From NCBI GenBank assembly GCA_036261625.1, contig DATAKL010000044.1, positions 72,352 through 136,351 on the forward strand: a stretch of DNA of 64,000 nt, given 5' to 3'. The position numbers and the translations under genes were made by a program. The notes beneath the pieces were generated by a model. That model made no database searches. It was not told the DNA's origin and saw only the letters and a list, made by a program, of their open reading frames with translations. This stretch comes from Ignavibacteriales bacterium. GTDB taxonomy: Bacteria; Bacteroidota; Ignavibacteria; Ignavibacteriales; SURF-24. Shown one piece after another: positions 13,648 through 63,174 of this stretch. Positions within the stretch are counted from its first letter, which is position 1, and every line of letters begins with the position of its first letter.

Positions 13648-13703
13648 TTTAATTGAAAAATTGTTCTTATTTTTATAGTATTATTTTGAACTAACACGAA
13701 AGC

Positions 13704-13791
13704 CGACGTTAGGGGTGTCGCGGGATTATTTTCCGGCGGCTGAGATTATACCCTTAAACCTGATCTGGATAATGCCAGCGTAGGGAAACGA
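13704..13791 (+). promoter_or_regulatory. TPP (THI-box) riboswitch aptamer
   Basis: Near-consensus THI-box: AGGGGTG...GGCTGAGATTATACCCTTAAACCTGATCTGGATAATGCCAGCGTAGGGAAACG. P1 pairing is CGTT/AACG. Confidence 0.92.
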
Positions 13792-13819
13792 CTAAAGATA
13801 TAAGAGTAATTGTTACTTT

Positions 13820-13866: not shown

Positions 13867-16365
13867 ATGAAGTATATAATTATTCTTTTTTTATTTTTAA
13901 ACGGAATCATCCGGCCTCAGGAAGGCAGTCTTTCAGGTAGGGTAGTCGACCGGGAAACCTTAAAGCCTCTTGGACAGGCCAGCGTTACAGTAGAAGGCTC
14001 TGATATAAAAACCTTAACCGATGAAAAAGGTGCCTTCAGGCTCTCAGGCCAACTTCCTTCTTCAGGCGATCTGATTATCAGCTATATAGGCTACAGCGCA
14101 AAACGGGTCAGAATAGATACCCTTGTATCCTCCGGCGGGAGCATTACAGTCAGTCTTGAGCCCCAGATCATCTCTTCGCAAACCATTCTTGTCACAGGCA
14201 GTATAGGTAAGGAAGGCATAACCCCGCTTGCATTTTCCAAGGTAAGCAGGAGTAAAATTGAGGAGAAATATATGGAACAGGATGTGCCTGAATTTCTCTC
14301 CTCGCTTCCTTCAACTACTTTTTACTCCGAATCGGGCGGCAGCATAGGTTACAACTATTTAAGCATAAGAGGTTTCGACCAGCGCAGGATCTCGGTTTCA
14401 ATAAATGGAGTGCCGCAGAACGATCCTGAGGACCATAACGTCTACTGGCTCGATTTCCCGGATATACTCTCAAGCTCTGAACTCGTTCAGGTCCAAAGAG
14501 GAGCCGGTTCGGGAATAATCGGCTATCCTTCAATCGGCGGGTCGATCAACATTATTACCTCTTCCTTCAGCAATAAGGCCCAGTATGAATTCGGTGCCTT
14601 CACGGGAAGCTTTAATACAAGGAAATACAGCGCGAACTTCTCAAGCGGGCTGATTGACAATACCTATTCCATCCATACCATGCTCTCCAAAACGCTCAGT
14701 TCGGGCTACAGGAACTCTGCATGGGCAGACTATAATGCATACTATGTCTCAGCAGTCCGCTACGACAAAAATCTGACTACACAGGTCAATTTCTATGGCG
14801 GCCCGATTTCAGACGGCCTGGCCTATACGGGGCTGCCGAAGTTTACAATTAAGGATAAGACCTTAAGGAGGATGAACTATTCATACTGGGAAGCCTCCAA
14901 TGGGAAATTCGACTACACTTTAGAGCGCAGGCCTGAGGAGATAGAAAACTTCTCTCAGCCTCATTTTGAACTCTTGAATGAATACAACATAAACAGCCGC
15001 ATTTCATTTAACTCAGCTTTGTTTTTAGTCCTCGGCAACGGTTTTTTTGATTATGACGGCTCATGGGCCGATACTTCATACTTCAGGCTTACAAAAGACA
15101 ACGGCTTCAACGCCCAGGCAAACCCCTCAAATGCTCTTATTCGCGCACAGGTGGAAAACAGGCAGTACGGCTGGATACCGCGCCTTAGAATAGATCATGG
15201 CACAGGTGAGCTTATCCTTGGTGCCGAATTCCGTCTGCACCGCTCGCTGCACTGGGGTTCGATCAACTACGCAGACAACCTTCCTGAAGGTGTGGACAAA
15301 AACTACAGGTATTACCAGTACCGCGGGGGAAAAGATATCTTCAATGTCTTTGCACATGAAAGCTATAACATTTCACCCGTAATGAATCTTCTGGCAGAGC
15401 TTCAGCTGGCATACTTTAAGTACAGGCTTTATGATGAAAAATACCTGGGGACAGATTTTAAGGTCGGCAGCGTGTTCTTAAATCCCCGTCTGGGCCTCAA
15501 TTACAAATTAAGCACCAAATCGAATGTCTATCTTACTGCCGCAAGAGTCTCCCGAGAGCCGAGGCTTGTAAACTACTACGATGCCGCAGAATCGGGCGGG
15601 GGAGCTGAGCCGCAGTTTGCAAGAAATGAAAACGGAGCCTACGATTTTACGAATCCTTTGGTTAAACCTGAATCCATGAATGACCTGGAGGCCGGAACCT
15701 CATTCTTGGCAGATGGATATTCAGCCGGAGTGAACCTGTTCTATATGCTCTTTAGCGATGAGATCGTAAAAAACGGCAAGGTCGACCGCTTCGGCCAGCC
15801 CGTAACGGGCAATATGGATAAAACCGTGCACTCAGGAATCGAACTAAACGGACTTCTTAAGCTTAATGAGAACTTCGAACTGGCATTAAACGGAACCTAC
15901 AGCAGGAATTACATACTGAACGGAAAAACTTTTGTCTCTTACACAGACCCTGTGACAGGCGAAGACAAAGTAGGCGCACTCAAACTGGATGGAAACAGGA
16001 TCAGCGGATTTCCCGACTTCCTTCTTAACACCTCTCTGAAAATGAAACTGGGAGGAATGACTTCTATTCTGACAGCAAGGTACGTAGGTAAATTTTATTC
16101 CGACAATTACGATAAAAATCTTCAGTCGTATCTGGCATCTTACCCCGGATTTAACGATTATACAGACAACGTTGTTGACGCTTATTTTACGGCAGACATT
16201 TTTGCAAGCTATGAACTCCAGCTTCCTGAAATCTCAAAGACTCTGAAGGTCTCGGCCAGGGTAAACAATATTTTTGACAGCCTTTATGCCTCTTATGCAA
16301 TAGGGGGTGAATTCTTCCCGGCTGCAGAACGCAATTTTGTTGTGGGACTTCAGCTGGGATTATAA
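13867..16365 (+). CDS. TonB-dependent outer-membrane receptor (CarboxypepD_reg N-terminal domain)
   Basis: Signal peptide and GRVVD...PLGQASVTVEG carboxypeptidase-regulatory-like domain. Plug region SIRGFDQRRISVSINGVPQNDPE. Long beta-barrel with alternating aromatic pattern. RBS AGGAG. Confidence 0.85.
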   Translation: MKYIIILFLFLNGIIRPQEGSLSGRVVDRETLKPLGQASVTVEGSDIKTLTDEKGAFRLSGQLPSSGDLIISYIGYSAKRVRIDTLVSSGGSITVSLEPQIISSQTILVTGSIGKEGITPLAFSKVSRSKIEEKYMEQDVPEFLSSLPSTTFYSESGGSIGYNYLSIRGFDQRRISVSINGVPQNDPEDHNVYWLDFPDILSSSELVQVQRGAGSGIIGYPSIGGSINIITSSFSNKAQYEFGAFTGSFNTRKYSANFSSGLIDNTYSIHTMLSKTLSSGYRNSAWADYNAYYVSAVRYDKNLTTQVNFYGGPISDGLAYTGLPKFTIKDKTLRRMNYSYWEASNGKFDYTLERRPEEIENFSQPHFELLNEYNINSRISFNSALFLVLGNGFFDYDGSWADTSYFRLTKDNGFNAQANPSNALIRAQVENRQYGWIPRLRIDHGTGELILGAEFRLHRSLHWGSINYADNLPEGVDKNYRYYQYRGGKDIFNVFAHESYNISPVMNLLAELQLAYFKYRLYDEKYLGTDFKVGSVFLNPRLGLNYKLSTKSNVYLTAARVSREPRLVNYYDAAESGGGAEPQFARNENGAYDFTNPLVKPESMNDLEAGTSFLADGYSAGVNLFYMLFSDEIVKNGKVDRFGQPVTGNMDKTVHSGIELNGLLKLNENFELALNGTYSRNYILNGKTFVSYTDPVTGEDKVGALKLDGNRISGFPDFLLNTSLKMKLGGMTSILTARYVGKFYSDNYDKNLQSYLASYPGFNDYTDNVVDAYFTADIFASYELQLPEISKTLKVSARVNNIFDSLYASYAIGGEFFPAAERNFVVGLQLGL

Positions 16366-47344: not shown

Positions 47345-49027
47345 ATGATCCGTAACATTCTTATTTATCTGCTCAGAAAAGTTAAAATCCATATAAATTT
47401 AAGTTTTATCCTTCTGACAGTCCCTTTTTTTAATATAAATTCAGCTGAAAGTGTTTATATTCGTGTAAACCAGGTAGGCTTTCTTCCCGGGGAGATCAAG
47501 ACGGCTGTTGTAATGTCTGAGGGTGATATCTCAGGCAGTGAGTTCAGGCTTATTAAAAAAGATGACAAAAAGACTGTCTTTACAGGCCGGCTGCCCGCGG
47601 CTTTAAGAGGAGAAGGAAAGTTTAAGAACAACTGCATCATAGATTTTTCAGCCTTAAGAAAGCCGGGCAGATATATAATAGAGTGCAGAGGTGCCCGGTC
47701 GCATCCTTTTTCTGTAGGAAATGACATCTATAACGGCATTGCTGATTCACTCTTAATGTTCTTTAAGGTACAGAGATGCGGCTATACAGATCCTTTTCTG
47801 CACAAGGTCTGTCACATTGCCGATGCAACGGCTTTAATTCCCCGAGGGCAGAGGGCTAAACATGACGTTACAGGGGGATGGCACGATGCAGGGGATTACA
47901 TTAAATTCTTTAATACGACGGCTTTTTCAACTTATTTGCTCCTGTTTTCATATGAATTTGATCCCCTGAAGTTCAGTTTCGATACTAACGGCAACAATGT
48001 TCCCGACATACTGGAGGAAGCAAAAATCGGGCTGGACTGGCTTTTAAGAAGCCGCCTCGCGGCCGGTAGTTTTATTATCCAGGTGCAGGATCTAAGGGAT
48101 CACGACGAGGGCTGGCGTCTTCCTGAGGATGACAAACTCACTTTCGACCGTCCGGCCTTTACAGGCGGAGGAAAGAATAGTGCGGGAATATACAGCGCCG
48201 TTATGGCCCTGGCATACAGGATTTGGAAAGAAAGGCTCCATTATGATGAATTTGCTCTTCGATGCCTGAAGGAGGCCAGGACATGCTACTCTGAGGCCGA
48301 CAGGATGCCTGAGGTCGATCATAGCGGCACCGGGATGTACCTGGATTCAAAGTATGAAGGGAAAATGGCCCTCGGTGCAATTGAGCTCTACGAGAGTACA
48401 AAAGATGAAGGCTACTTAAAAGATGCCGCCAGTTTTGCTTCTAAAGCGCAGTCTGATTACTGGTGGAGCTGGGGCGATATGAACTCCATTGCAGATTTCA
48501 AAATTGCAAAGCACAGGCCCGAATTTAAAGACTATTTACTGAATAACCTGAAAAATTTTAATGATATAAAAAATAAAAATGTTTTCGGGGAGGCGGCCAA
48601 AAACACCTGGGGCTCTAATACGGCGCTTATGGGGGCAGCTCTGCAGGCAATATTATGGAAAAATCTTACAGGCTCGGGCAGTTTTGATTCTTTAATGGTT
48701 TTTGAGCGGGATTATATACTTGGAAAAAATCAGTGGGGAGTAAGTTTTATCTATAATATCGGCAGTGTATTTTCAAAAAACTTTCATTCACAGGTGGGAT
48801 TTTTAAGGAATGGATATCTGCCCGGAGCTGTGGCGGCAGGCCCGATAAGCAGGAAAAAACTTGAAACTTTTAAGGTAAGTTTCCCCGGCAGGGACCCATT
48901 GCGCGATTTTCAGACAGATTCAGCGGTTTATCAGGACTTAAAGGAGGATTATGTGACAAATGAGCCTTCGATCTCAACAAATGTCACCGCCTTGTTTTTA
49001 ATGGGGTATTTTGCCCAAAGGCATTAG
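47345..49027 (+). CDS. Glycoside hydrolase family 9 endoglucanase with N-terminal Ig-like (CelD_N) domain
   Basis: N-terminal signal/anchor. IRVNQVGFLPGEIKTAVV (Ig-like module typical of GH9). GH9 signature HDVTGGWHDAGDYIKF and C-terminal DYVTNEPSISTN. Confidence 0.85.
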   Translation: MIRNILIYLLRKVKIHINLSFILLTVPFFNINSAESVYIRVNQVGFLPGEIKTAVVMSEGDISGSEFRLIKKDDKKTVFTGRLPAALRGEGKFKNNCIIDFSALRKPGRYIIECRGARSHPFSVGNDIYNGIADSLLMFFKVQRCGYTDPFLHKVCHIADATALIPRGQRAKHDVTGGWHDAGDYIKFFNTTAFSTYLLLFSYEFDPLKFSFDTNGNNVPDILEEAKIGLDWLLRSRLAAGSFIIQVQDLRDHDEGWRLPEDDKLTFDRPAFTGGGKNSAGIYSAVMALAYRIWKERLHYDEFALRCLKEARTCYSEADRMPEVDHSGTGMYLDSKYEGKMALGAIELYESTKDEGYLKDAASFASKAQSDYWWSWGDMNSIADFKIAKHRPEFKDYLLNNLKNFNDIKNKNVFGEAAKNTWGSNTALMGAALQAILWKNLTGSGSFDSLMVFERDYILGKNQWGVSFIYNIGSVFSKNFHSQVGFLRNGYLPGAVAAGPISRKKLETFKVSFPGRDPLRDFQTDSAVYQDLKEDYVTNEPSISTNVTALFLMGYFAQRH

Positions 49028-49160: not shown

Positions 49161-50462
49161 ATGAAAAGAAATATACAATTAGTACAAACGGGACTGCCCC
49201 TGATTGATCAGGCCTGGGGAGGATTTTACAAGGGGGGCACATATTTGCTTATAGGACCTAAAAAGTCCGGGCGCACACTTCTGGGTCTGCAGTATGCAAT
49301 GCAGTCTGCAAGGCAGAAGGAGGTCTGCTTGTATTTTACAAATATGAGACCCAAGGACCTTATGATTCATGCAGCCAGCATAGATTTTGACATTCAGACA
49401 TACATGAATCAGAATCTGATTGTTGTCGTGCGTGTGACCCCGCCGGTTGATCTCTACGACCTGCGTGATCCGGATGAATATCTCATTGAATATCTGAAAG
49501 ATATTGTTACAGTTGTTGAGCAGTTTGCTCCCAAGAGAATAATTTTTGATGAACTTACGCCATATATAGGCTTCAGCAACCTGAATCTGCTCAGGGAGTC
49601 TTTCCTTGAGACCCTGGAAAATATTGAGCAGAGAGATGTTACAAGTCTTTTTACAATCGGAGAGCCTGCAACGCCGGTTGCCCAGTCAATTGTTGATGAG
49701 CTTGTTCAGCATGTGACGGCTACAATTTACCTTCAGAAAAAGACTCTTTCCGGCGATTTTAAGCCGCAAACAGGCAAGATGACGATTACCCCAAATATCG
49801 GGCACACAGAAGGGCAGTTTACTGCTAACTATTCAATTGAGCCTTATAAGGGGATAGTTACAGATTTTAAGCCCGCGTTTCCGCAGGCTGATTCTCAGGC
49901 TTCACCTTCTTCGGAACTTCTAAGGGCGCCTCAGCAGCAGCAGCAGATTCCTGAGAGCCGCTACCAGTCGCTCTCAAGCATTGAAACGTTCCAGGAGCCC
50001 TATTCGTTTTCAAATTTTTACGAGTACAACGATTTCCTTTTACTTTTGAATAATCAGATCGCATTATACAAAAGCACGGGACAGATATTTTCCCTTGTCT
50101 CATTTAAGCTTGATACTGCGGCCGAGCGCGAGCGTCTGCTTACAATAAATCAGCTCCAGAATGCAGTCCGCCTTGCAACTGACAGGAAGGACAAAATCTG
50201 CGTTTATGATAATAAGGTAATCGTACTTTTAATACGCAGTGATGCTAAAAGCCTTGCGGGACTGGTTTCAAAGATTCAGGCCAATTTGCCAAGCAGCGAT
50301 CCTAATTATATAAAAACTGTACTGCAGTACATTTCAGTTTTATCTGTTGAAGTTGATGAACAGGTTGAAAATGCAGAATCGATTATGAAGTATGTTCTTG
50401 GTGAAGAATTCCGCAGCGATAAAAATAGTGACTCATTTAACAGGTATAACCCGAATTACTGA
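49161..50462 (+). CDS. Cytosolic protein: degenerate RecA/KaiC-like ATPase domain + Q/P/S-rich linker + degenerate GGDEF-like domain
   Basis: N-terminus follows the KaiC/RadA pattern (VQTGLPLIDQAWGGFYKGGTYLLIGPKKSGRTLLGLQY...RIIFDEL...VTSLFT). Walker A is GPKKSGRT (Lys to Arg). The linker contains PQQQQQIP. The C-terminus follows the GGDEF-fold pattern (FSLVSFKLD...LQNAVRLATDRKDKICVYDNKVIVLLIRSD), with VYDNK in place of GGDEF/GGEEF. Confidence 0.6.
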   Translation: MKRNIQLVQTGLPLIDQAWGGFYKGGTYLLIGPKKSGRTLLGLQYAMQSARQKEVCLYFTNMRPKDLMIHAASIDFDIQTYMNQNLIVVVRVTPPVDLYDLRDPDEYLIEYLKDIVTVVEQFAPKRIIFDELTPYIGFSNLNLLRESFLETLENIEQRDVTSLFTIGEPATPVAQSIVDELVQHVTATIYLQKKTLSGDFKPQTGKMTITPNIGHTEGQFTANYSIEPYKGIVTDFKPAFPQADSQASPSSELLRAPQQQQQIPESRYQSLSSIETFQEPYSFSNFYEYNDFLLLLNNQIALYKSTGQIFSLVSFKLDTAAERERLLTINQLQNAVRLATDRKDKICVYDNKVIVLLIRSDAKSLAGLVSKIQANLPSSDPNYIKTVLQYISVLSVEVDEQVENAESIMKYVLGEEFRSDKNSDSFNRYNPNY

Positions 50463-53323
50463 TGAAAAAAATTATTCTTCTTTTATTCTTTTTGTCTGCA
50501 GCTTTAGCCACTATATCTGCGCAGCCAGGCCAGGCGACGCTTAAATCCGAAGCGTTGAAGCAGATACAGGCAGGCAGCTTTGGCGAGGCCATAGACCTGC
50601 TGAACAAATACATTTCTGCTTATCCACACTTGTCCGACGGTCTGAATCTGCGCGGCTACTGCTTTGAAAAAAGAGGACAGTATGGCGATGCCGTGCTGGA
50701 CTACAAACGTGCACTTATGATAAGTCCCAATAATTCCGAAATACAGAAAAATCTCTCGCGGGCAGAAACTGTGTGGCATTCTCTCTTAAATAGAAAGATT
50801 GAAGGCTATAAAAGGGAAATTGCCATTAACCCGCAGAACGCTGTAAACTACCTTGAGATCGGCAAGTGTATGAAAGACCTGGGAAGGTGGGCTGATGCCG
50901 AAGTCTGGTACGATGACTACCTCAAACGAGAGGCTGCTTCTCCGGATGAAATTATTAGATACAGCGAAATTCTGGCCCATAACAATCAGCTCGTCAAGGG
51001 GGAGAAAGTCCTCAAAAGCTATACTGAACATTATCCGAATGATCACAGGCTCTGGAGCCGATACGGATTCTTTACAATGTGGCTCGGCAAGTTTAAGATT
51101 GCAATTAAAGCCTTTGAAAATGCACTCGCAATTAAACCTTTCTTCAAGGAAGCACAGGACGGACTCGACCAGGCAAAAGGACAGGCATATACTTTTGAGT
51201 GGACAGACACAACGGCCAGGCACAGGCGGAATCAGCCCGTTAAGGAATATGCAATTGACAGGTACTACAGAATCATCAGGAAAAAGCCATCAGATGAAAA
51301 AACCCGCTTCCTGCTGATTGATGAACTCGTTAAGGTAAAAAGATATGAGGAAGCTTACCAGCAGCTCCAGGTCCTCTCTAGAACTCACACCGATGACGAG
51401 AAATTCCAGCAGCTTTATGACAATGTTACTGCCACCAGGGATAGCCTAATGCAGATCAAAATTGAAAGCTATAAAGCCCGTATTGAAAAGAACCCTAAAG
51501 ATAAGGCAGCCGTAATGGCTCTTGCCGACAGCTACAGCGGACTTTTTGATTATGACAGCGCAGTTAAGGTGCTCGAAGACTATCTTGCTGCCTCAGGCAG
51601 TGAAGAGAACAATGACGTCAGGTTCAAAATAGCGCAGTATGCCGGATGGAACAGGGATTTCGGAAGATCCCTGGAGCAGGTTAACTTCCTTCTCGGGAAA
51701 GATCCTGATAACCTAAAATACCAGCTCTTAAGATCACAGCTTGCCGTATGGACAAGCCAGGACTACGATATAGCTGAAAAACTTCTGGGAAATGTGGTCC
51801 GGAAGGAACCTGAGAACATAGACGCACTGCTGGCCTTTGGAACGCTCAGGACAAACCAGGAAAAATTTGACGAGGCAAAGAAATACCTGGATCTGGCCCG
51901 CCAGGTCGATTCCACGAGCAAATATGTGGAACAGCTTGATGCTTACCTCTCCGGTCAGATATCCAGAGCCGAGGAAAGAAAAATATTTGAGATTTTGGAG
52001 GAGGGAAGAAAAATTCTCGTTGAGACTCACGACTGCGAGCAGGCTCTTCAGAAATACGACGAGTATTATTCCAAAGCCACTGTAAACCGGCTTTTCCTCC
52101 TGGAATATGCAGAAGTTTATGCATGCGTTAAAAACTATCCGAGGGCTATTGAACTCTACACACAGGCCTTAAACGAGGAATACAGCTTTGATGGGGCTTA
52201 TGGAAGGGCAAAGGCATACCTCTGGGGAAAAGACTCTCTGAATGCACTCATTGAGTTTAAGAAACTTGCCCAGGAGGCCCCAGATAACTTTGAAGTTCAT
52301 ATGCTCCTTGGCGACTCGTATCTGGAAATGCACCAGTATGATGAGGCCAGAGCTGTTTACGACAGTCTGATGGAAAGGACGACTGACTCGGCTCAGGTGG
52401 CACTTCTTAAGCCAAGATTCAGCTGGATACCCTCTTCGGGGTTCGGAGCGTTTTTTGCAACTTTCCCGAACTATATCGGGCTGGCCCCTCAGTTTAACTA
52501 CTATTCCGATAATATGAACCTGAGTTTTCAGAACTCGGGAGCAAGGCTTGAACTGGGACTCACAAGCATTATATCGGCCGGGGTGACTTTTACCCGCGGA
52601 AGCCTCAGTTCAAGAACCGCATCGCGAAACTATTCGACTCTCGAGGGAAGTCTTTACTTCAGGCTTTCGCGCTACATGATTCTGTCAGGCGGCTATGGAA
52701 ATATGACATACAAAGGGACACGCAATACACCTGTTTCCGATGCAAGCCTGCGTTACGACAGGGAGAATAAAGACAACCAGATCAACATTAACGCAATCTA
52801 TCAGAGAACTGATGCCGGTATTATACTTTTTTCAACGCGTCTTATTGATTACAGGATTCAGTCAGATTTATTCCGCTTTAACGGAAGCTTTAAGAAGAAA
52901 AACGGTCTTAAACTCTCAGGCATGTTCGACTACCTGAAGCTCTCAGACGGCAATGCAGCCAACGACCTGCAGCTAAGGCTCGGCAAGGCTTTTGAAGAGG
53001 ATATTACAGTCGGCTACGAATATGCCTACTCTAACTATTCCAGGAAGAGCAACTATTACTATTCACCCAAAAACTTTGAATCGCACAGCCTCTGGGGAGA
53101 ATGGATGCTTGCGAAGAGTTCGGAGCTCCAGTTAACGCTCGGCGCAAAACTGGGCTACGTTCCGATGAGCGATTTTATTACGAGGGAGATTTCAGCCTCG
53201 GCTGACTACAAGATCTTCGGCTCGCTGACCATAATGGGAAGGCTTACAGCCGGCGGAACATACCGCTACGACGCCCAATATAACTACGTCTCAGGCACAG
53301 TTTCAGCTTTCTGGTCGCTCTGA
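50462..53323 (+). CDS. Outer-membrane protein: signal peptide + about 640 aa of TPR repeats + about 300 aa C-terminal beta-barrel-like domain
   Basis: Signal peptide MKKIILLLFFLSAALATISAQ. Many TPR-like repeats. The C-terminal third has alternating hydrophobic/polar strands rich in Y/G/S/N and ends SAFWSL. The ATG overlaps the stop of the upstream gene (TGATG). Confidence 0.65.
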   Translation: MKKIILLLFFLSAALATISAQPGQATLKSEALKQIQAGSFGEAIDLLNKYISAYPHLSDGLNLRGYCFEKRGQYGDAVLDYKRALMISPNNSEIQKNLSRAETVWHSLLNRKIEGYKREIAINPQNAVNYLEIGKCMKDLGRWADAEVWYDDYLKREAASPDEIIRYSEILAHNNQLVKGEKVLKSYTEHYPNDHRLWSRYGFFTMWLGKFKIAIKAFENALAIKPFFKEAQDGLDQAKGQAYTFEWTDTTARHRRNQPVKEYAIDRYYRIIRKKPSDEKTRFLLIDELVKVKRYEEAYQQLQVLSRTHTDDEKFQQLYDNVTATRDSLMQIKIESYKARIEKNPKDKAAVMALADSYSGLFDYDSAVKVLEDYLAASGSEENNDVRFKIAQYAGWNRDFGRSLEQVNFLLGKDPDNLKYQLLRSQLAVWTSQDYDIAEKLLGNVVRKEPENIDALLAFGTLRTNQEKFDEAKKYLDLARQVDSTSKYVEQLDAYLSGQISRAEERKIFEILEEGRKILVETHDCEQALQKYDEYYSKATVNRLFLLEYAEVYACVKNYPRAIELYTQALNEEYSFDGAYGRAKAYLWGKDSLNALIEFKKLAQEAPDNFEVHMLLGDSYLEMHQYDEARAVYDSLMERTTDSAQVALLKPRFSWIPSSGFGAFFATFPNYIGLAPQFNYYSDNMNLSFQNSGARLELGLTSIISAGVTFTRGSLSSRTASRNYSTLEGSLYFRLSRYMILSGGYGNMTYKGTRNTPVSDASLRYDRENKDNQININAIYQRTDAGIILFSTRLIDYRIQSDLFRFNGSFKKKNGLKLSGMFDYLKLSDGNAANDLQLRLGKAFEEDITVGYEYAYSNYSRKSNYYYSPKNFESHSLWGEWMLAKSSELQLTLGAKLGYVPMSDFITREISASADYKIFGSLTIMGRLTAGGTYRYDAQYNYVSGTVSAFWSL

Positions 53324-53386: not shown

Positions 53387-53420
53387 AGTTCTCATTATTT
53401 TTACCTCGCATCCTGACAAC

Positions 53421-53535
53421 CTGATCCCTGATGTCTCCTGATCCCAGATGTCTCCTGATCCCAGATGTCTCCTGATCCCTGATGTCTCCTGATCCCAGAT
53501 GTCTCCTGATCCCAGATGTCTTCTGATCCCTGATT
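53421..53535. repeat. 17-bp tandem repeat, about 6.8 copies, with a 51-bp higher-order period
   Basis: The unit CTGATCCC[T/A]GATGTCTC repeats head-to-tail. The variable base follows T,A,A,T,A,A,T. There are no spacers. Confidence 0.95.
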
Positions 53536-54293: not shown

Positions 54294-56417
54294 GTGGGAC
54301 ATTTAATAAGAAATATATTGCTGATATGGCTCCTGGCATCTGCTTCGGCAGCTGCTCAGAGTATGCCTGCAGGAGAAAACTCTTTTTACTTAAAAGGACT
54401 GGAGTGCCTTAAACACCACGACTCAGAAGGAGCGGAGCATATGTTTAAGGAATCCGTAAAAGAGTTTTCCGATGCCCCCTCTATGTTTGAGCTTGCAAAG
54501 CTCTACCGCGATAAGAACACCATCTCGGGGCGCGACCGCGCAAGAAGCCTTATACAGAAAGCCATCTGGAAAGAGCCTAAGAATATTGAATACAGAATGC
54601 TCCAGGCATCTTTAATGGAAAAGTTCGGCCTTAAGATGGCCTTTGACATCTACGAGGAGATTACTGAAGTTGACAGCACGTGTGCCAGGGCATGGTTTAA
54701 TATGGGAAAGATCAAAGAGGCCGATTTTAATGAGTACCATAATTCGGTTTTTATGGATAATTACAGCGACCCGCTCCTGAGTTACGAAAAATTTGCAATG
54801 GAAGATATGCAGGAGGCTGAAGGCTGCTTCAGGAAAGCCCTGCGTTTTGATCCCCGGAACCAGGAGGCAAGGCTTCATATGGCTTTTCTCTACGAGGACG
54901 CAGGACTTCCGGACAAGGCCATACCGCTCCTGGAGGAGATGATTAAAATTGATTCTTCAAATAAGGATGCACACCTCTATCTGGGACTGGTTTACTATAA
55001 AACCTCAAAGATTAAAAAATCCTACGCGGAGTATAAAAAAGCCTTAAGGTTCATGTCGTACAAAGAAGAGGTCGACTTTACATTTAACTCTGTAAAGGCT
55101 CTTCTGGAGCCTCTTTTGGGGGATGCCTATAAGAAATATTCCACGGATGAGTTAAAGGAGATTATTGATCTTTACTGGAGGGCTAACGACCCCTTAAATC
55201 TTACTGAATATAATGAACGTCTGCTGGAGCATTATTCCCGCGTAGCCTATGCAAACCTCCGGTTTACGACAAAGACGGACAGTACTCCGGGCTGGAAGAC
55301 TGACAGGGGGGAGGTTGTAATGCGCTATGGTGAACCATTAAGCCGCCTGCGCTATAGACCGCATCTGAATTTAGGCGAAAGGGCAACGATGAAAGTTAAG
55401 ACCGACGTCTGGATGTACAACGGACTTACATTCGGTTTTACAGATGAATATCTTTCGGGCAACTACCGCTTCAGCGTGCCTGAAATGGGCGGCATGTTCC
55501 TGCCTCAGTACGGCGGGGATTCACAAAGGCTGATGGATTATTTAAGAAAAGTAAAGTATGAGGACTATACTCCGAAGTACGACGGTCCGGCATTTAACAT
55601 GCCTTTCTATATAGCGCAATTCAAGAGCACGGGGGAGAAGACCGATATTGTTATCAGCTACGGGCTTTCTTTTCCTGACAGTATAGTTAAAGATATAAAG
55701 TTTTCCAGCAGTCACGACTACGGCATCTTCTTTACTGATAAGTATTATGAACCGGTCTTCCAGAAAAAAAGCAGCATGAGTAATGTTCCTGAAGAATGGA
55801 AAATCAGGCGCCCGGATGGAGAAATCTGCTACGTAAATGCCGTTTGCCTTTCAGCCTGGCCTGACTCCGGAATGATTGCGCTTGAAGTCTTAAGAAAAAT
55901 AGATAACGGCGTGGCTTCAAACCATAAACGCTTTAAGATCAGGCATTTTTATCCCGGTCAGTTTGCAATGAGTGATCTTCTTCTGGCTTCAAAAGCTGCA
56001 GCCGGAGACGCAGCGGGCGCTCCGGTAAAAAGAGGGGACATCAGCATAATTCCAAATCCGTTAAATGCTTTTTCAGACAGGGAAGATCTTTACCTTTATT
56101 ATGAGGTATATAATCTTGCATTGAATAAAGATCAGAAGACAGACTTTGAACAGAAGATCATTATCAGGAGTGCGGAAGAAGAGTCGGGAATAAAAAAAAT
56201 ATTTAGTGCGGTTACCGGTTTCTTAGGCTTCAGGAGCTCAAAGAAAGAGGTGTCGCTTACTTCAAGATATCAGACAGGTGATAAAGATCCTAAGATGTAC
56301 ATTCAGCTGGATATGAGTGAATATGAAGCGGGGGATTATTTTGTTGAGACAGTTATAAAAGATAACTTAAGTCAGAAGGAGACCAGAGCAGAAGCCATAC
56401 TGCACTGGCGGCAGTAA
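54294..56417 (+). CDS. GWxTD domain-containing protein with N-terminal TPR repeats
   Basis: Signal peptide, TPR region and the family-defining motif PGWKTDRGEVVMRYGEP. GTG start. Confidence 0.75.
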   Translation: MGHLIRNILLIWLLASASAAAQSMPAGENSFYLKGLECLKHHDSEGAEHMFKESVKEFSDAPSMFELAKLYRDKNTISGRDRARSLIQKAIWKEPKNIEYRMLQASLMEKFGLKMAFDIYEEITEVDSTCARAWFNMGKIKEADFNEYHNSVFMDNYSDPLLSYEKFAMEDMQEAEGCFRKALRFDPRNQEARLHMAFLYEDAGLPDKAIPLLEEMIKIDSSNKDAHLYLGLVYYKTSKIKKSYAEYKKALRFMSYKEEVDFTFNSVKALLEPLLGDAYKKYSTDELKEIIDLYWRANDPLNLTEYNERLLEHYSRVAYANLRFTTKTDSTPGWKTDRGEVVMRYGEPLSRLRYRPHLNLGERATMKVKTDVWMYNGLTFGFTDEYLSGNYRFSVPEMGGMFLPQYGGDSQRLMDYLRKVKYEDYTPKYDGPAFNMPFYIAQFKSTGEKTDIVISYGLSFPDSIVKDIKFSSSHDYGIFFTDKYYEPVFQKKSSMSNVPEEWKIRRPDGEICYVNAVCLSAWPDSGMIALEVLRKIDNGVASNHKRFKIRHFYPGQFAMSDLLLASKAAAGDAAGAPVKRGDISIIPNPLNAFSDREDLYLYYEVYNLALNKDQKTDFEQKIIIRSAEEESGIKKIFSAVTGFLGFRSSKKEVSLTSRYQTGDKDPKMYIQLDMSEYEAGDYFVETVIKDNLSQKETRAEAILHWRQ

Positions 56418-59156: not shown

Positions 59157-59296
59157 TTTTTAAAACGGCTTCACTTTGAGAGTGATTTAAGTTATTTTTG
59201 CTGATTATTATACATTCTTTTTTAGAAACATTTACTGTTAAAATTCAGTATAAGAAGCATTCAATAATTCTGTTTTGCTTTCTCGAGGTTGCTAAT

Positions 59297-60751
59297 ATGA
59301 TTGATTCTGTTGCTCTGTTTTTCGGAGATTTAATTAAAAATATACGCTTTGCCGATCTTATTGACATAGCTATCGTTTCTTTCTTTTTATATACGTTTAT
59401 AAACTGGTTCAGGAAAAGTGCTTCCAGAAGACTATTAATTGCAGTTACTATTTTTGTAGTTGTTTATCTTCTGGCAAGAATATTCGGGCTTTACCTTACC
59501 GAAATGCTCATTAAAATAGTTATCGGCGTAATACTGATTGCAGCAATTATGCTCTTCCAGTCGGATATCAGGCGCCTGATAGACCTCTTCGGTACCTGGG
59601 GAGGCATAAGGGGACAAAAGAGAACGGGCATACTTAATTCCACGGTTGATGTCATCACATCGGCCTGCACAAAAATGGCAGAAAACCATACAGGTGCTCT
59701 TATTGCAATAAGGGGGCGTGAAATCTGGGATAACTGCATAAACGGCGGAATAGAATTAGACGGAAGATTAAGCCAGCCCCTTATATTCAGCATATTTAAC
59801 ACCAAGTCTCCCGGGCACGACGGCGCAATACTCGTTGAAGACAACAGGATTATTAAGTTCGGGGCCCACCTGACACTTTCTACAAATCTTAAGGAGATCG
59901 GCCCGGGCGGAACCCGCCATGCCGCGGCACTTGGACTTTCAGAAAAGTGCGACGCACTTGTAATTGCAGTTTCTGAAGAAAGGGGAACCATTAGTGTGGC
60001 TGAAGACGGCAGACTGAGTCTTCTTACTTCAAGCAGCGAACTTAAGGAAAGAATTGAGCGCTTCTGGGAGAGAAATTATCAGAAAAAGCAGGAAACCGCG
60101 GCAAAATGGTGGAAAAGCAAAAGCCTGCAGACGGCTCTTGTTGCTGTATTTCTTTCGGTTACATTCTGGGCACTGTTTGCAAATCAGTCCGATAAGGTCT
60201 ACAGAAGCTACACCGTACCAATTGAATTCCGTAATCTGAGGCCCGATCTGGCGCTCGAGGATCCGGTCCCGATGGAAGGAAGAGTTACACTTGCAGGTTC
60301 TGAACAGGCATTCAGGCTTTTTAATCCTTCTAATCTCATCATCTCCATTAACATGGAACGCCTTGAAAAAGGGGATAATGAGATCATGGTGGCACGCGAC
60401 AACCTGGAACTCCCCTCCGGTGTGGACCTGTACAGGGTGGAACCCAGGGTCCTAAAGTTAAAGGCCGATGCAATGAAACTTGTGCGTGTACCGGTAAGGG
60501 TGCAGACCATGGGAAGTGCCTCCGGAAATGTGAGATTTGTGAAACTGAATGCCGAACCTTCATCTGTAATGCTCCGCGTTCCCGATAACAGCTACAGCGT
60601 GCCGAAATACGTTTCTACAGAACCTATTGATCTTTCAGACGTAAGGGAGTCTTCTGCAATTCCAAGCAGGCTTATTCCCCCAAAGAAGACAAGGCTTCTT
60701 CCTGAACAGAGCCCGGAGATAATGGTAAAGGTCCAGGTTCCAAAAAAGTAA
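59297..60751 (+). CDS. cdaA: Diadenylate cyclase CdaA fused to a TM segment and YbbR (CdaR)-like repeats
   Basis: Three N-terminal TM segments. DisA_N/DAC domain (TGALIAI...SPGHDGAILVEDNRI...GTRHAAALGLSE..DALVIAVSEERGTISV). Then a TM segment (LQTALVAVFLSVTFWALF) and YbbR-like beta repeats (YTVPIEFRNLRPDL...; VRVPVRVQTMG). Start set at ATG 59297. Confidence 0.8.
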   Translation: MIDSVALFFGDLIKNIRFADLIDIAIVSFFLYTFINWFRKSASRRLLIAVTIFVVVYLLARIFGLYLTEMLIKIVIGVILIAAIMLFQSDIRRLIDLFGTWGGIRGQKRTGILNSTVDVITSACTKMAENHTGALIAIRGREIWDNCINGGIELDGRLSQPLIFSIFNTKSPGHDGAILVEDNRIIKFGAHLTLSTNLKEIGPGGTRHAAALGLSEKCDALVIAVSEERGTISVAEDGRLSLLTSSSELKERIERFWERNYQKKQETAAKWWKSKSLQTALVAVFLSVTFWALFANQSDKVYRSYTVPIEFRNLRPDLALEDPVPMEGRVTLAGSEQAFRLFNPSNLIISINMERLEKGDNEIMVARDNLELPSGVDLYRVEPRVLKLKADAMKLVRVPVRVQTMGSASGNVRFVKLNAEPSSVMLRVPDNSYSVPKYVSTEPIDLSDVRESSAIPSRLIPPKKTRLLPEQSPEIMVKVQVPKK

Positions 60752-60855: not shown

Positions 60856-63174
60856 TTGGCAGACCAGGCGAAAGTTTTTATTTTGACAGGCGAACACCAG
60901 GATCTCAAGACTGGTAATACCCTGAGATATTGGGGCATTTCGGATGACGGGATGCCTGTGGAATTCATAATAGACAGTGTCAGACCTGTATTCTTTACAA
61001 ACAGGGAAAACACCTCCCTAAGCCTGCCCATCCAGTACACGCGCAAAGAGGTTAAACTAAAGTCTTTTGACTTCAGGGATGTTGATGCCCTGTACTTCAG
61101 GACACAGAAGGATTTAAGATCTGCTGCTGAAATCCTGCGTTCACTCGGCATTACAACCTATGAGTCGGATGTAGATCCTGTAAGAAGATTTCTTATGGAG
61201 CGCTTTATTCATGTACAGCTTACCTTAACAGGTGAATGCGTGAATCTGGGCCATAGCCTCAGGTTTATTAACCCTAAAGTTGAGCCGTGCGAATTCGACC
61301 CTAAGTTTAAGGTTGCTTCCATTGATATTGAAACCGGCATTAAGGACGGCACCTTATATTCCATTGCCGTACATCTGAGTGGAAGAAACAGTGAAGAAGA
61401 AAAAATTGTGTTCATGCTGGCAGATGATGCTTTGGATGATGGACAGTTAAAGCTCTTCAGAACTCAAAAGGATCTCCTGCAGAGTTTCCTCAACTGGTTT
61501 AAGTGGGCCGATCCCGACCTCATCATCGGCTGGCATGTGATCGGCTTCGACCTGATGTTTCTGGAAAATAAAGCCCGTGAGCTTCACATTCCATTCGACA
61601 TTTCAAGGGGCGGCGGGAGAACTTCTCTTGTACAAAGAAAATCGGGAGGCTACTTTGCCTATATCCCGGGCCGGGTAGTCCTTGACGGGCCTCCGGCGCT
61701 AAGGAGCGCATTTTATTCATTTGAAGATTTCAGGCTTGAGACCGTTTCTCAGGAGCTTTTGGGCAGGGGAAAGACCATAACTCCGGATGAGGACAAAATA
61801 GGCGAAATTGAGAAATTCTTCAGCCAGGATAAACATAAGCTTGCCGAGTACAACCTTCAGGATGCCGTACTCGTAAGCGAGATCTTTGCTAAGACGGGAC
61901 TAATTGACCTGTGCGTAAAAAGATCACAGATCTCGGGACTTTTTATGGACCAGCTCTCAAAGATGACTCAGGCTTTTGACAACTTCTACCTTCCACGGCT
62001 CCACAGGGCAGGCTTTGTGGCTCCGGAGAGCGACATGACCAGAACGACGGAAAATCTTGCCGGGGGATACGTTATTGACCCTAGACCTGGCATTTATGAC
62101 AATGTAGTTGTAATGGATTATAAGAGCCTTTATCCTTCAATTATCGAAACCTTCAAGATCGATCCTCTTTCAAAGATCACCTCTGAAGAAGATACGATCC
62201 TGACGCCGGGCGGATATAAATTCTCCAGAACCAGGCACATTCTGCCTGAATACATTGGCTCCCTCATGCATAAAAGAGCCGGGGCTAAAAGAAGTAAAAA
62301 CAAGCACTTAGCTCAGGCAATTAAAATTCTGATGAACAGTTTCTACGGCGTCATGGGCGCCTACGGCTGCAGGTTCTTCGACCCCTATCTTCCCAATTCA
62401 ATTACTAGTACCGGGCAGTGGATCTTGCTCGAAAGCAAACGGTTCCTAGAAGAAAAGGGATATGAAATTGTCTACGGGGATACAGATTCACTCTTTATAA
62501 AGCTTAAGAAAGGTGAATCTGAAAAGGCCGCCCTTCTTGGCGAAGAGCTTGCCCGGGAGATGAATCTTTACTGGAAGGAAAGACTGCTGAAGGAATTTTC
62601 CCTCGAATCGTTTCTGGAAATTGAATTTGAAAAACACTACAGCCGCTTCATACTAACGACTGCGCGCGGCGGCGGGGGAGAAGCAGGAGCAAAAAAGCGT
62701 TACGCAGGTTTGATTGAAACCGGGGGCCGACGTCATCTGGAGTTTACAGGTATGGAAATAGTGCGCTCCGATTGGACACGCCTGGCAAAGGAATTTCAGC
62801 AGGAGCTATACAGCAGGATTTTTAATAGTGAGGATGCCGACGGCTGGATAAGAAGTTTTGTCGAAGAGGTAACCCGCGGCCTGCATGACGAGAAACTGGT
62901 ATACAGAAAAAGGCTTAGGAAAGACGTCGACCTGTACACAAAAAACACACCTCCGCACGTGAAGGCTGCAAGGCTTACTAATACTTCTTCAGGAATTATT
63001 AAGTACGTGATGACAAAAAGAGGACCTGTTCCTGTTGAACTGGGGCAAAGGGACTTTGACTACCAGCACTACATTGATAAACAGATAAAACCGATTGCCG
63101 ATTCGGTACTGGGACTTCTTGGGCGGTCATTCGATGAGCTCTTTAAGCCCACGCAGCTGAATTTCTTTTCCTAG
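60856..63174 (+). CDS. polB: DNA polymerase II (family B)
   Basis: Exo I ASIDIETG. Motif A DYKSLYPSII, motif B KILMNSFYGVMG, motif C YGDTDSLF. The N-terminus and YESDVDPVRRFLMERFI resemble E. coli Pol II. TTG start. Confidence 0.9.
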   Translation: MADQAKVFILTGEHQDLKTGNTLRYWGISDDGMPVEFIIDSVRPVFFTNRENTSLSLPIQYTRKEVKLKSFDFRDVDALYFRTQKDLRSAAEILRSLGITTYESDVDPVRRFLMERFIHVQLTLTGECVNLGHSLRFINPKVEPCEFDPKFKVASIDIETGIKDGTLYSIAVHLSGRNSEEEKIVFMLADDALDDGQLKLFRTQKDLLQSFLNWFKWADPDLIIGWHVIGFDLMFLENKARELHIPFDISRGGGRTSLVQRKSGGYFAYIPGRVVLDGPPALRSAFYSFEDFRLETVSQELLGRGKTITPDEDKIGEIEKFFSQDKHKLAEYNLQDAVLVSEIFAKTGLIDLCVKRSQISGLFMDQLSKMTQAFDNFYLPRLHRAGFVAPESDMTRTTENLAGGYVIDPRPGIYDNVVVMDYKSLYPSIIETFKIDPLSKITSEEDTILTPGGYKFSRTRHILPEYIGSLMHKRAGAKRSKNKHLAQAIKILMNSFYGVMGAYGCRFFDPYLPNSITSTGQWILLESKRFLEEKGYEIVYGDTDSLFIKLKKGESEKAALLGEELAREMNLYWKERLLKEFSLESFLEIEFEKHYSRFILTTARGGGGEAGAKKRYAGLIETGGRRHLEFTGMEIVRSDWTRLAKEFQQELYSRIFNSEDADGWIRSFVEEVTRGLHDEKLVYRKRLRKDVDLYTKNTPPHVKAARLTNTSSGIIKYVMTKRGPVPVELGQRDFDYQHYIDKQIKPIADSVLGLLGRSFDELFKPTQLNFFS

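Follow-up and report, generated by a model that had tools for sequence, protein, structure and literature searches.

Synthase-dependent secretion systems, such as those for cellulose, poly-N-acetylglucosamine (PNAG), Pel and alginate, are the best-understood route by which Gram-negative bacteria build a biofilm matrix, and nearly everything that is known about them comes from Proteobacteria. The parts of such a system are a processive synthase, an inner-membrane co-polymerase, a nucleotide sensor (of cyclic di-GMP, c-di-GMP), a tetratricopeptide repeat (TPR) scaffold, a periplasmic hydrolase and an outer-membrane porin (PMC8892547). The regulator BcsE has an N-terminal domain that is predicted to be RecA-like and was overlaid on KaiC, and a C-terminal degenerate GGDEF domain that binds c-di-GMP and BcsQ; its closest structural relative is PelD (PMC7439463). 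Here, we describe a gene pair at positions 49161-53323 of a stretch of 64,000 nucleotides from an Ignavibacteriales bacterium (GCA_036261625.1, contig DATAKL010000044.1), hereafter called the window. The two genes probably belong to a synthase-dependent system by which the Ignavibacteria secrete an exopolysaccharide, the first encoding its regulatory or assembly subunit in the cytoplasm and the second its export channel in the outer membrane. An earlier interpretation of the window, made from the letters of the DNA (the sequence-only reading), had named BcsE as a precedent for the domain combination in the first of the two proteins, in agreement with the published description of a RecA-like N-terminal domain modelled on KaiC joined to a degenerate GGDEF domain (PMC7439463).

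The first gene (49161-50462) encodes a cytoplasmic protein of 433 amino acids, here named KaiCL, that consists of a KaiC-like domain, a disordered linker and a degenerate GGDEF-fold domain, and for which neither a transmembrane segment nor a signal peptide was predicted. The second gene (50462-53323) encodes a predicted outer-membrane protein of 953 amino acids, here named TPROMP, with a signal peptide, a TPR array and a C-terminal β-barrel region. The two proteins are referred to below as the regulator and the porin, and all of their features, like the gene upstream of them, are located on the forward strand. The stop codon of the regulator gene (TGA, 50460-50462) and the start codon of the porin gene (ATG, 50462-50464) have one nucleotide in common in the sequence TGATG (50460-50464). 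The gene coordinates, protein lengths and overlap given by the sequence-only reading were exact, and the motifs that it named in the regulator, GPKKSGRT (amino acids 32-39) and VYDNK (amino acids 348-352), are present.

A scan of one genome per species identified relatives of the regulator in 299 stretches, from which 79 loci were kept, all of them from different species with Ignavibacteria or Melioribacter-type genomes. Synteny was assessed by tblastn and all-against-all clustering of the open reading frames (ORFs). The porin gene is located directly 3' of the regulator gene in 72 of the 79 loci, and the exceptions are mostly due to contig ends. The genes overlap by one nucleotide at 30 of the 66 regulator-porin junctions and by four nucleotides at another 12, and they are separated by gaps of 3-14 nucleotides at 16 more, such that an overlap or a gap of at most 14 nucleotides is kept at about 58 of the 66 junctions. 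Both proteins have hundreds of full-length homologs. The homologs of the regulator number more than 1000, and the best 120 are full-length proteins of 55-90% identity from Ignavibacteria-type genomes, which carry generic names in the databases (“RAD55 family ATPase” or “KaiC”). The gene pair is thus real and conserved, and not a product of chance, because there are hundreds of full-length homologs and because 72 loci have the two genes in succession; co-conservation and tight joining of the genes support the sequence-only reading. In one locus (L034), the pair has been tandemly duplicated as a unit, giving the order GH9, pair, GDSL, pair, GT2. Additional or fragmentary copies of the regulator gene were observed in L062, L072 and L055. 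The conserved overlap of stop and start codons would hold the synthesis of regulator and porin together at a fixed ratio. A scan for sigma-70 promoters and terminators is uninformative in this phylum.

The N-terminal domain of the regulator (amino acids 8-234; 49182-49862) is assigned to the KaiC/RecA-like proteins by its matches in Pfam, among the PDB sequences and in Foldseek. Pfam PF06745 (KaiC/ATPase) matches amino acids 8-198 (E 4.6e-23; 82.2 bits against a gathering cutoff of 26.6), and a search of the PDB sequences with the profile of the regulator family retrieved KaiC at E 7e-20. The AlphaFold model of the whole 433-amino-acid protein, which has a confidence score (pLDDT) of 71, shows the RecA-like domain, a disordered linker and a confident C-terminal domain; the confidence is moderate for the N-terminal domain (pLDDT 50-88). 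The top 50 Foldseek matches of this full-length model are all KaiC (E ~1e-13).

The Walker A motif, GPKKSGRT (49254-49277), is placed opposite GTPGTGKT of KaiC in the hidden Markov model (HMM) alignment and differs from it in that Arg38 replaces the P-loop lysine. The motif reads GRT in 154 (84%) and GKT in 27 (15%) of 184 distinct family sequences. Arginine and lysine are both seen at position 38 among members that are 57-68% identical to the window protein, and distant members of the same architecture (26-42% identity) often contain the canonical GK[ST], for example P0286, P0291 and P0295. The P-loop also contains an extra lysine, Lys35, that is invariant in the family alignment (G-P-[KR]-K-S-G-[RK]-T) and that may substitute for the classical Walker lysine. 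The site of the catalytic Glu-Glu pair of KaiC (VTfEEsP) is occupied by T60-N-M-R-P64 (49338-49352), with N61-M62 opposite E77/E78 of KaiC. The family has [S/N/L/T/I]-Met at this site, and none of the 184 sequences has a glutamate. The Asp130-Glu131 pair of Walker B (IIFDELT; 49548-49553), opposite the VVIDS motif of KaiC, is kept; it is found in 179 of the 184 family members and is invariant in family alignment A1.

The N-terminal domain is thus a KaiC-family domain that has almost certainly lost the capacity for hydrolysis, since the Walker lysine is mostly an arginine and the catalytic glutamate pair is gone. An ordinary active KaiC paralog was rejected on the loss of these catalytic residues. 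Nucleotide binding may persist, because the Asp-Glu pair of Walker B is kept and the canonical GK[TS] is found in 15% of the members and in some of the more distant proteins. The domain is followed by a Q/P/S-rich linker of 44 residues (amino acids 239-282; 49875-50006), which is predicted to be disordered (pLDDT <50) and is variable in both length and sequence, with a gappy and unconserved alignment.

The C-terminal domain (amino acids 285-415; 50013-50405) was recognized as a degenerate GGDEF-fold domain from an AlphaFold2 model of this domain and a Foldseek search, and it shows the order of helices and strands that is typical of the cyclases. The domain was modelled separately, the full-length model having drawn only KaiC matches in Foldseek. 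The domain-only model has a pLDDT of 83, with a core above 90. Its top 50 Foldseek matches in PDB are all GGDEF domains with a TM-score of about 0.6, the best of which is 3ign (E 1.4e-5; TM-score 0.62). Among these are PleD, WspR and DosC, as well as the degenerate receptors LapD and PelD (4dmz, rank 49).

The position that corresponds to GG[DE]EF is occupied by a β-hairpin with the sequence V348-Y-D-N-K352 (50202-50216). The catalytic motif is absent, and the hairpin is variable across the family (xx[ND]K[VI]). The most conserved loop of the domain, T340-D-R-K-D-K345 (50178-50195), is located before strand 2. Residues K343, D344 and K345 are invariant, and the family pattern is [TS]x[KR]KDK, which is not an RxxD motif. 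This loop is placed at the position of the GGDEF I-site in a global hhalign alignment of low confidence. Judged from the models, the C-terminal domain has a GGDEF fold, and the canonical c-di-GMP-binding signature is missing; the degenerate GGDEF domain of the sequence-only reading is thus right as to the fold and the loss of catalysis. The proposal of a protein that is degenerate in both domains was thus borne out for the catalytic residues of the N-terminal domain and the motif of the C-terminal domain, and has to be modified in that Walker B is kept throughout nearly all of the family and the canonical Walker A in 15% of it.

At the sequence level, the C-terminal domain stands apart. Pfam has no match at all in the last ~150 amino acids of the window protein, PF00990 matching neither this protein (E<=1) nor any of 40 C-terminal domains of the family (E<=10). 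The hhalign comparison with an alignment of eight GGDEF sequences gives an insignificant 0.3-0.7%, that of the C-terminal domain with BcsE is likewise insignificant, and searches of the PDB sequences with the profiles of the C-terminal domain and of the porin barrel gave nothing meaningful. Matches of the profiles of this domain and of the barrel to AP-2 and Eap among the PDB sequences have E>0.01, look like chance and were rejected. A search of 1.84 billion representative proteins with the C-terminal domain profile gave 61 matches only, nearly all of which are proteins of about 360-450 amino acids with a KaiC-like N-terminus followed by this domain, or fragments thereof, and none of which is a true GGDEF protein. 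One of them, P0287 (1389 amino acids), matches the first ~90 positions of the profile with residues 917-993 (E 9.5e-10) and has no Pfam matches; it may represent another architecture that bears the C-terminal domain of the regulator. Another, P0298 (~1,390 amino acids), looks spurious.

The porin starts with a signal peptide, MKKIILLLFFLSAALATISA (50462-50521), which was read from the sequence; it ends in ATISA, is followed by QP, and has a hydrophobic segment at amino acids 4-22. The TPR region (amino acids ~27-650, about 620 residues; 50540-52411) matches many TPR families, for example TPR_19 at 3.7e-37, and presumably serves as a periplasmic scaffold. The Pfam matches of the whole protein are restricted to TPR families in this region and include no barrel family, and the NCBIfam matches to PrsT, PgaA and BcsC are all below threshold and driven by the TPR repeats; that to TIGR03939 (PgaA), for instance, which stems solely from the repeats, reaches 59 bits where 366 are required.

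The predicted β-barrel region (amino acids ~655-953; 52424-53320) ends in SAFWSL. An abundance of aromatic residues alternating with hydrophobic ones marks these last ~300 positions, and a crude alignment-averaged scan for amphipathicity indicates about 16 β segments. The only Pfam family matched by several of 37 homologous C-terminal regions is BCSC_C (PF05420), with matches to 4 of the 37 and a best E of 0.0029, and none of the 37 reaches the Pfam threshold. We compared profiles with hhalign, using for BcsC the C-terminal regions of eight sequences, from Escherichia coli and seven diverse plasmid-borne bcsC genes. The profile of the Ignavibacteria barrel matched that of BcsC with a probability of 91.6% (E 8e-7) over 168 columns, compared to 0.2% for the reversed BcsC profile. 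It matched neither the PgaA barrel (2.9%) nor NfrA (0.3%), and the same was true of the BcsC profile itself (1.6% and 0.3%). The match is centered on (G)YYSPQxYxS, and alignment A3 shows hardly any variation at Y233 and P236. In the window protein, the motif reads YYSPKNFES (amino acids 866-874; 53057-53083), in common with GGYYSPQxYxS of the BcsC barrel. By these profiles, the C-terminal barrel region is specifically BcsC-like and a predicted distant relative of BcsC_C, because the reversed control was clean and PgaA and NfrA matched neither profile. The architecture of signal peptide, TPR repeats and C-terminal barrel that had been read from the translation is thus supported by the Pfam TPR matches, the BcsC_C-like profile and the β segments.

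The conserved feature is wider than the interval 49161-53323. Directly upstream of the regulator gene is a gene for a hydrolase of the GH9 endoglucanase family (47345-49027), and it is part of the same unit, because a GH9 gene is located at this position in 71 of the 79 loci. The encoded protein has a signal-like N-terminus, an N-terminal Ig-like domain of the CelD type (CelD_N, 4.3e-20) and the catalytic domain (Glyco_hydro_9, 3.1e-70), in the translation of which the motifs DAGD and NEP are visible. By analogy with BcsZ, PgaB and PelA in other systems, it is a candidate for a periplasmic enzyme that trims the polymer. It shows no similarity to BcsZ, which is a GH8 enzyme and with which no match would be expected.

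The order of genes on the same strand in the 79 loci is GH9, regulator, porin, sometimes an SGNH/GDSL-like gene, a glycosyltransferase of family 2 (GT2), u164, u633 and an fn3 lipoprotein. The regulator is present in all 79 loci, the GT2 in 57, u164 in 56, u633 in 55, the fn3 lipoprotein in 36 and the SGNH/GDSL-like gene in 25, with most of the absences being due to contig ends. The trio of GH9, regulator and porin has no conserved neighbor of the SusC/SusD-like or TonB-dependent kind in these loci, and the GDSL protein shows no similarity to BcsG. Cultured strains of Melioribacter and Rosettibacter possess these genes. The statement of the sequence-only reading that no synthase or partner lies next to the pair, and that the locus is unrecognizable, is accordingly correct for the lineage of the window only, given the GH9 gene upstream and the GT2 block downstream in 57 loci.

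The GT2 protein (~470 amino acids) matches the NCBIfam family PgaC_IcaA at E 1.7e-61 with 208 bits, against an equivalog cutoff of 422. In hhalign it matches PgaC of E. coli at 99.9% and BcsA at 97.8%, and it also matches hyaluronan and cellulose synthases among the PDB sequences; NfrB was not matched. The motifs DGD, AED and QRYRW are invariant. Two N-terminal and three to four C-terminal transmembrane helices are predicted, and a PilZ domain is absent. On these matches, GT2 is a PgaC-like processive membrane synthase. It is followed by u164 (~164 amino acids; for example L008:7382-7870), which contains one N-terminal transmembrane helix, a low-complexity stretch rich in Q and P, and a strongly conserved cytoplasmic C-terminal peptide, KFMKYTSEGY[IV]P…W[RK]. 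It has no matches in Pfam or NCBIfam, and may be a membrane partner like BcsF or PgaD, or a docking site for the regulator. The u633 protein (~632 amino acids) has an N-terminal membrane anchor and a large body that is presumably periplasmic. The fn3 protein shows no similarity to BcsB or YbcH.

The porin gene has no synthase block downstream of it in the window or in the nearest relatives (L001-L006), and a tblastn search showed that the block is absent from the 64-kb window. The porin gene of the window is instead followed by a gene for a secreted protein of 707 amino acids with TPR repeats and a GWxTD domain (54294-56417), and then by a TPR protein of 208 amino acids and a PAS histidine kinase, an arrangement found only in the window and in L001-L003. 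About 100 nucleotides past the porin stop codon, in an ORF-poor gap of 970 nucleotides, there is a perfect-looking tandem array of the 17-nucleotide unit CCTGATCCCAGATGTCT (53420-53534; 6.8 copies, 94% matches), which is absent from 93 related loci. The synthase block has been split off in this lineage, and not lost, because assembly JBLMYS01 contains the trio on contig 39 (L003) and the genes GT2-u146-u632-fn3 on contig 361 (L091). The relocated block (L089:3184-7973; L091:8001-12780) encodes GT2, a protein of 146-150 amino acids, a protein of 632 amino acids and an fn3 protein of 322 amino acids. The block adjoins genes for the molybdenum cofactor and is itself followed by a PAS/HisKA/receiver hybrid kinase of 1108 amino acids. 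The regulator and the porin of the window correspond to HEX2867546.1 and HEX2867547.1, and a GT2 protein of 464 amino acids with the same organism label, HEX2865512.1, is located on a contig of 223,511 bp. The proximity of the accession numbers and the identical label suggest that it is part of the same metagenome-assembled genome as the pair.

Our interpretation of the pair, as one subunit for regulation or assembly and one for export in a synthase-dependent system, is based on the list of parts, which fits the published definition, and on the design of the regulator, which parallels that of BcsE. A processive GT2 is adjacent to the pair in most loci, the GH9 hydrolase is present, and the porin combines a TPR scaffold with a BcsC-like barrel; the GGDEF-fold regulator is, from its modelled structure, a candidate nucleotide receptor in which the known binding motif was not found. 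In such a system, GT2 would polymerize a β-linked glycan and move it across the inner membrane, the TPR array would receive the chain in the periplasm, GH9 would trim it and the BcsC-like barrel would export it. From the GH9 enzyme and the pore of the BcsC type, the polymer is probably a glucan or glucosaminoglycan with β-1,4 linkages, although PgaC is the closer relative of the synthase. The regulator would act at the cytoplasmic face, like BcsE and PelD, and might be docked to the membrane by the tail of u164, as BcsE is by BcsF. Its hydrolysis-dead KaiC-like domain would bind a nucleotide and oligomerize, the invariant KDK loop of its GGDEF-derived domain would make contact with a ligand or a partner, and together the two domains would activate or stabilize the PilZ-less synthase. 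Candidate ligands are c-di-GMP, c-di-AMP and ATP, and there may also be none. The window encodes a CdaA-type diadenylate cyclase (CdaA_N transmembrane region and DAC domain, 2.9e-34) fused to a YbbR-like domain at 59198-60751, from which it follows that the genome makes c-di-AMP, a candidate ligand. The gene is located 6 kb downstream of the pair, and such proximity is otherwise seen only in L002 and L003, the closest relatives.

Several observations weigh against this interpretation. No link of the regulator to GGDEF, GIL or BcsE was detected at the HMM level, in Pfam or by hhalign, and no pair of columns in the family alignment has an RxxD I-site in more than 30% of the members. No ORF with a GG[DE]EF motif was found in 1.35 Mb of related loci, a biased sample, or in the window. 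The second-messenger sensing put forward in the sequence-only reading is thus unsupported so far, the loop at the position equivalent to the I-site being [T/S]x[K/R]KDK, and homology to BcsE at the sequence level is undetectable. By hhalign, u164 is not related to PgaD, and u633 is not related to BcsB, PgaB or YbcH. The assignment of the barrel depends on profiles and on a crude count of amphipathic segments, and the support is computational throughout. Finally, the trio of GH9, regulator and porin stays together when it is apart from the synthase block, and might serve a separate function.

The reading that comes closest to the one preferred here is a lesser possibility that deserves attention, namely that the system is the same and that its regulator serves in scaffolding or assembly without a second messenger, such that the GGDEF-derived domain is an interaction module and the KaiC-like domain an oligomerization module. 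The lack of a conserved RxxD, the variable hairpin at the GGDEF motif and the absence of GGDEF-motif proteins from the sampled Ignavibacteria DNA are all consistent with such a role, for which the conserved cytoplasmic peptide of u164 could be the partner. BcsE offers a precedent in that its degenerate GGDEF domain binds BcsQ independently of c-di-GMP and its N-terminal domain drives homo-oligomerization (PMC7439463). However, the invariant K-D-K loop at the I-site-equivalent position, together with a Walker A of the form G..KSG[RK]T and the Asp-Glu pair of Walker B, look like features selected for the binding of nucleotide or phosphate. A more speculative version of the preferred reading, which we regard as rather unlikely in its entirety, takes the fusion of two degenerate domains for an allosteric switch that evolved independently of BcsE, convergent with it, and that controls a PilZ-less synthase in response to a signal other than c-di-GMP. 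The candidate signals are ATP/ADP, read by the Arg-type P-loop, and c-di-AMP or (p)ppGpp, read by the KDK loop; the signal would be relayed to the membrane complex via the u164 tail. If true, a new class of nucleotide receptor would have arisen from two dead enzymes, in a phylum without known regulation of exopolysaccharides.

Some Ignavibacteria, such as Melioribacter, degrade polysaccharides, and GH9 is a classical cellulase family whose catalytic motifs are intact in the protein studied here. The trio might on these grounds be a device for the uptake and degradation of β-glucan or cellulose, in which the TPR/barrel protein imports chains to a periplasmic GH9 under the regulation of the cytoplasmic protein; that the trio is intact in the window's lineage, where it is unlinked from the synthase block, speaks for this as well. 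We nevertheless find it improbable, since the trio in most genomes is continued on its strand by the block of the processive synthase, the barrel matches the export porin BcsC in the profile comparison, no conserved SusC/SusD-like or TonB-dependent neighbor was found, and periplasmic hydrolases are standard in export systems (PMC8892547). Even less can be said for a coincidental neighborhood in which the 953-amino-acid protein is a Slam-like or other translocon for surface proteins or lipoproteins, or an envelope scaffold, with no relation to polysaccharide. The fn3 lipoprotein conserved in the block would suit a translocon, and TPR_Slam does match the porin, but weakly and below the Pfam threshold (3e-5; 24.8 bits against a cutoff of 35.2), while DUF560 matches neither the porin nor any of the 37 barrel regions. 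A Slam-type translocon, which the sequence-only reading had mentioned for its similar architecture, was rejected because the DUF560 signal is absent and the barrel matches BcsC_C specifically; the synteny with GH9 and GT2 is also too consistent for coincidence, which makes this family of explanations very improbable.

We found neither the locus nor the protein family described in a search of the literature. The Ignavibacteria thus appear to have an undescribed gene set, conserved across the class, that combines the subunit with degenerate KaiC-like and GGDEF-fold domains with three orphan envelope proteins. If its function is confirmed, the pairing of a degenerate RecA-like domain with a degenerate GGDEF domain would be an ancient or recurrent solution for the control of glycan synthases. 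It would also give a tractable entry to the biology of exopolysaccharides and aggregation in the Ignavibacteria, a common group in sediments, bioreactors and hot springs. The regulator, lacking the canonical I-site, is a useful test of the binding range of degenerate GGDEF domains.

Other features of the window are located away from the pair. A thiamine pyrophosphate (TPP) riboswitch (13701-13803; Rfam RF00059, 70 bits) is found directly upstream of a gene for a TonB-dependent receptor with a CarboxypepD_reg domain (13867-16365), pointing to outer-membrane import of thiamine, or of a thiamine precursor, under the control of the riboswitch. The window also encodes a lytic transglycosylase (SLT) of 989 amino acids with seven LysM repeats (10678-13647), a family-B DNA polymerase (60856-63174) and, at its start, a tRNA-Leu on the minus strand (24-108).

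Compared with the described systems, the regulator is most similar in design to BcsE. Both are cytoplasmic, with a degenerate RecA-like N-terminal domain and a dead GGDEF-fold C-terminal domain, and both are found in a locus for the synthase-dependent secretion of a β-glycan with a TPR/barrel porin and an endoglucanase. The unusual design of a dead RecA-like ATPase joined to a dead diguanylate cyclase is thus repeated without detectable homology. The regulator has no match to GIL (PF10995), and the hhalign comparison of its family with BcsE of E. coli gives 0.2%. It lacks the degenerate REC domain in the middle of BcsE, and has the disordered Q/P/S-rich linker in its place. It also lacks an RxxD I-site, and its N-terminal domain is a bona fide KaiC-family domain in Pfam. 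Furthermore, the synthase is PgaC-like and PilZ-less, BcsQ, BcsR, BcsF and BcsG are absent, and the host phylum is distant, and the resemblance to BcsE may be convergent. PelD is similar in that it is a regulator of an exopolysaccharide system with a degenerate GGDEF fold and a TPR and barrel porin (PelB). However, PelD is anchored in the membrane, includes a GAF domain and uses a conserved RxxD to bind c-di-GMP, whereas in the regulator the partner domain is KaiC-like, and there is neither a transmembrane segment nor an RxxD. With the KaiC-like ATPases (KaiC, RadA/Sms and the archaeal ArlH), the regulator shares the fold of its N-terminal domain and the family PF06745. It differs from them in that it has a single such domain, has lost the glutamate pair, has mostly an arginine for the Walker lysine, is fused to a GGDEF-fold domain, and belongs to an envelope polysaccharide context and not to the clock or DNA repair.

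The porin resembles BcsC in its signal peptide, long TPR array, predicted C-terminal barrel, YYSPQ motif and adjacent endoglucanase gene. It is shorter (953 against 1157 amino acids), is below the BCSC_C threshold and is paired with a PgaC-like synthase and not with BcsA/BcsB; a homolog of BcsB was not found. The similarity to pgaABCD lies in the short PilZ-less synthase that is nearest to PgaC/IcaA, in the small membrane protein u164 at the position of PgaD, and in the TPR and barrel porin. However, the synthase falls short of the equivalog cutoff for PgaC, no relationship links u164 to PgaD or the barrel to PgaA, the hydrolase is a GH9 and not a CE4/GH153 enzyme of the PgaB type, and the regulator has no counterpart in pga. 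The NfrA/NfrB/YbcH system, a c-di-GMP-controlled exopolysaccharide system of E. coli, is likewise compact, with a GT2 synthase, a large outer-membrane protein and local nucleotide control (PMC8669469), but shows no profile similarity to the gene set studied here, and NfrB senses c-di-GMP via a fused MshEN domain. The regulator is placed outside the BcsE and PelD families because it shows no profile similarity to them and has no degenerate REC domain, GAF domain or RxxD. Taken together, the system is a mosaic distinct from the bcs, pga and pel loci, and it mixes a BcsC-type porin, a PilZ-less PgaC-type synthase and a GH9 enzyme where GH8 or CE4/GH153 is usual, with a regulator that is BcsE/PelD-like and a member of neither family.

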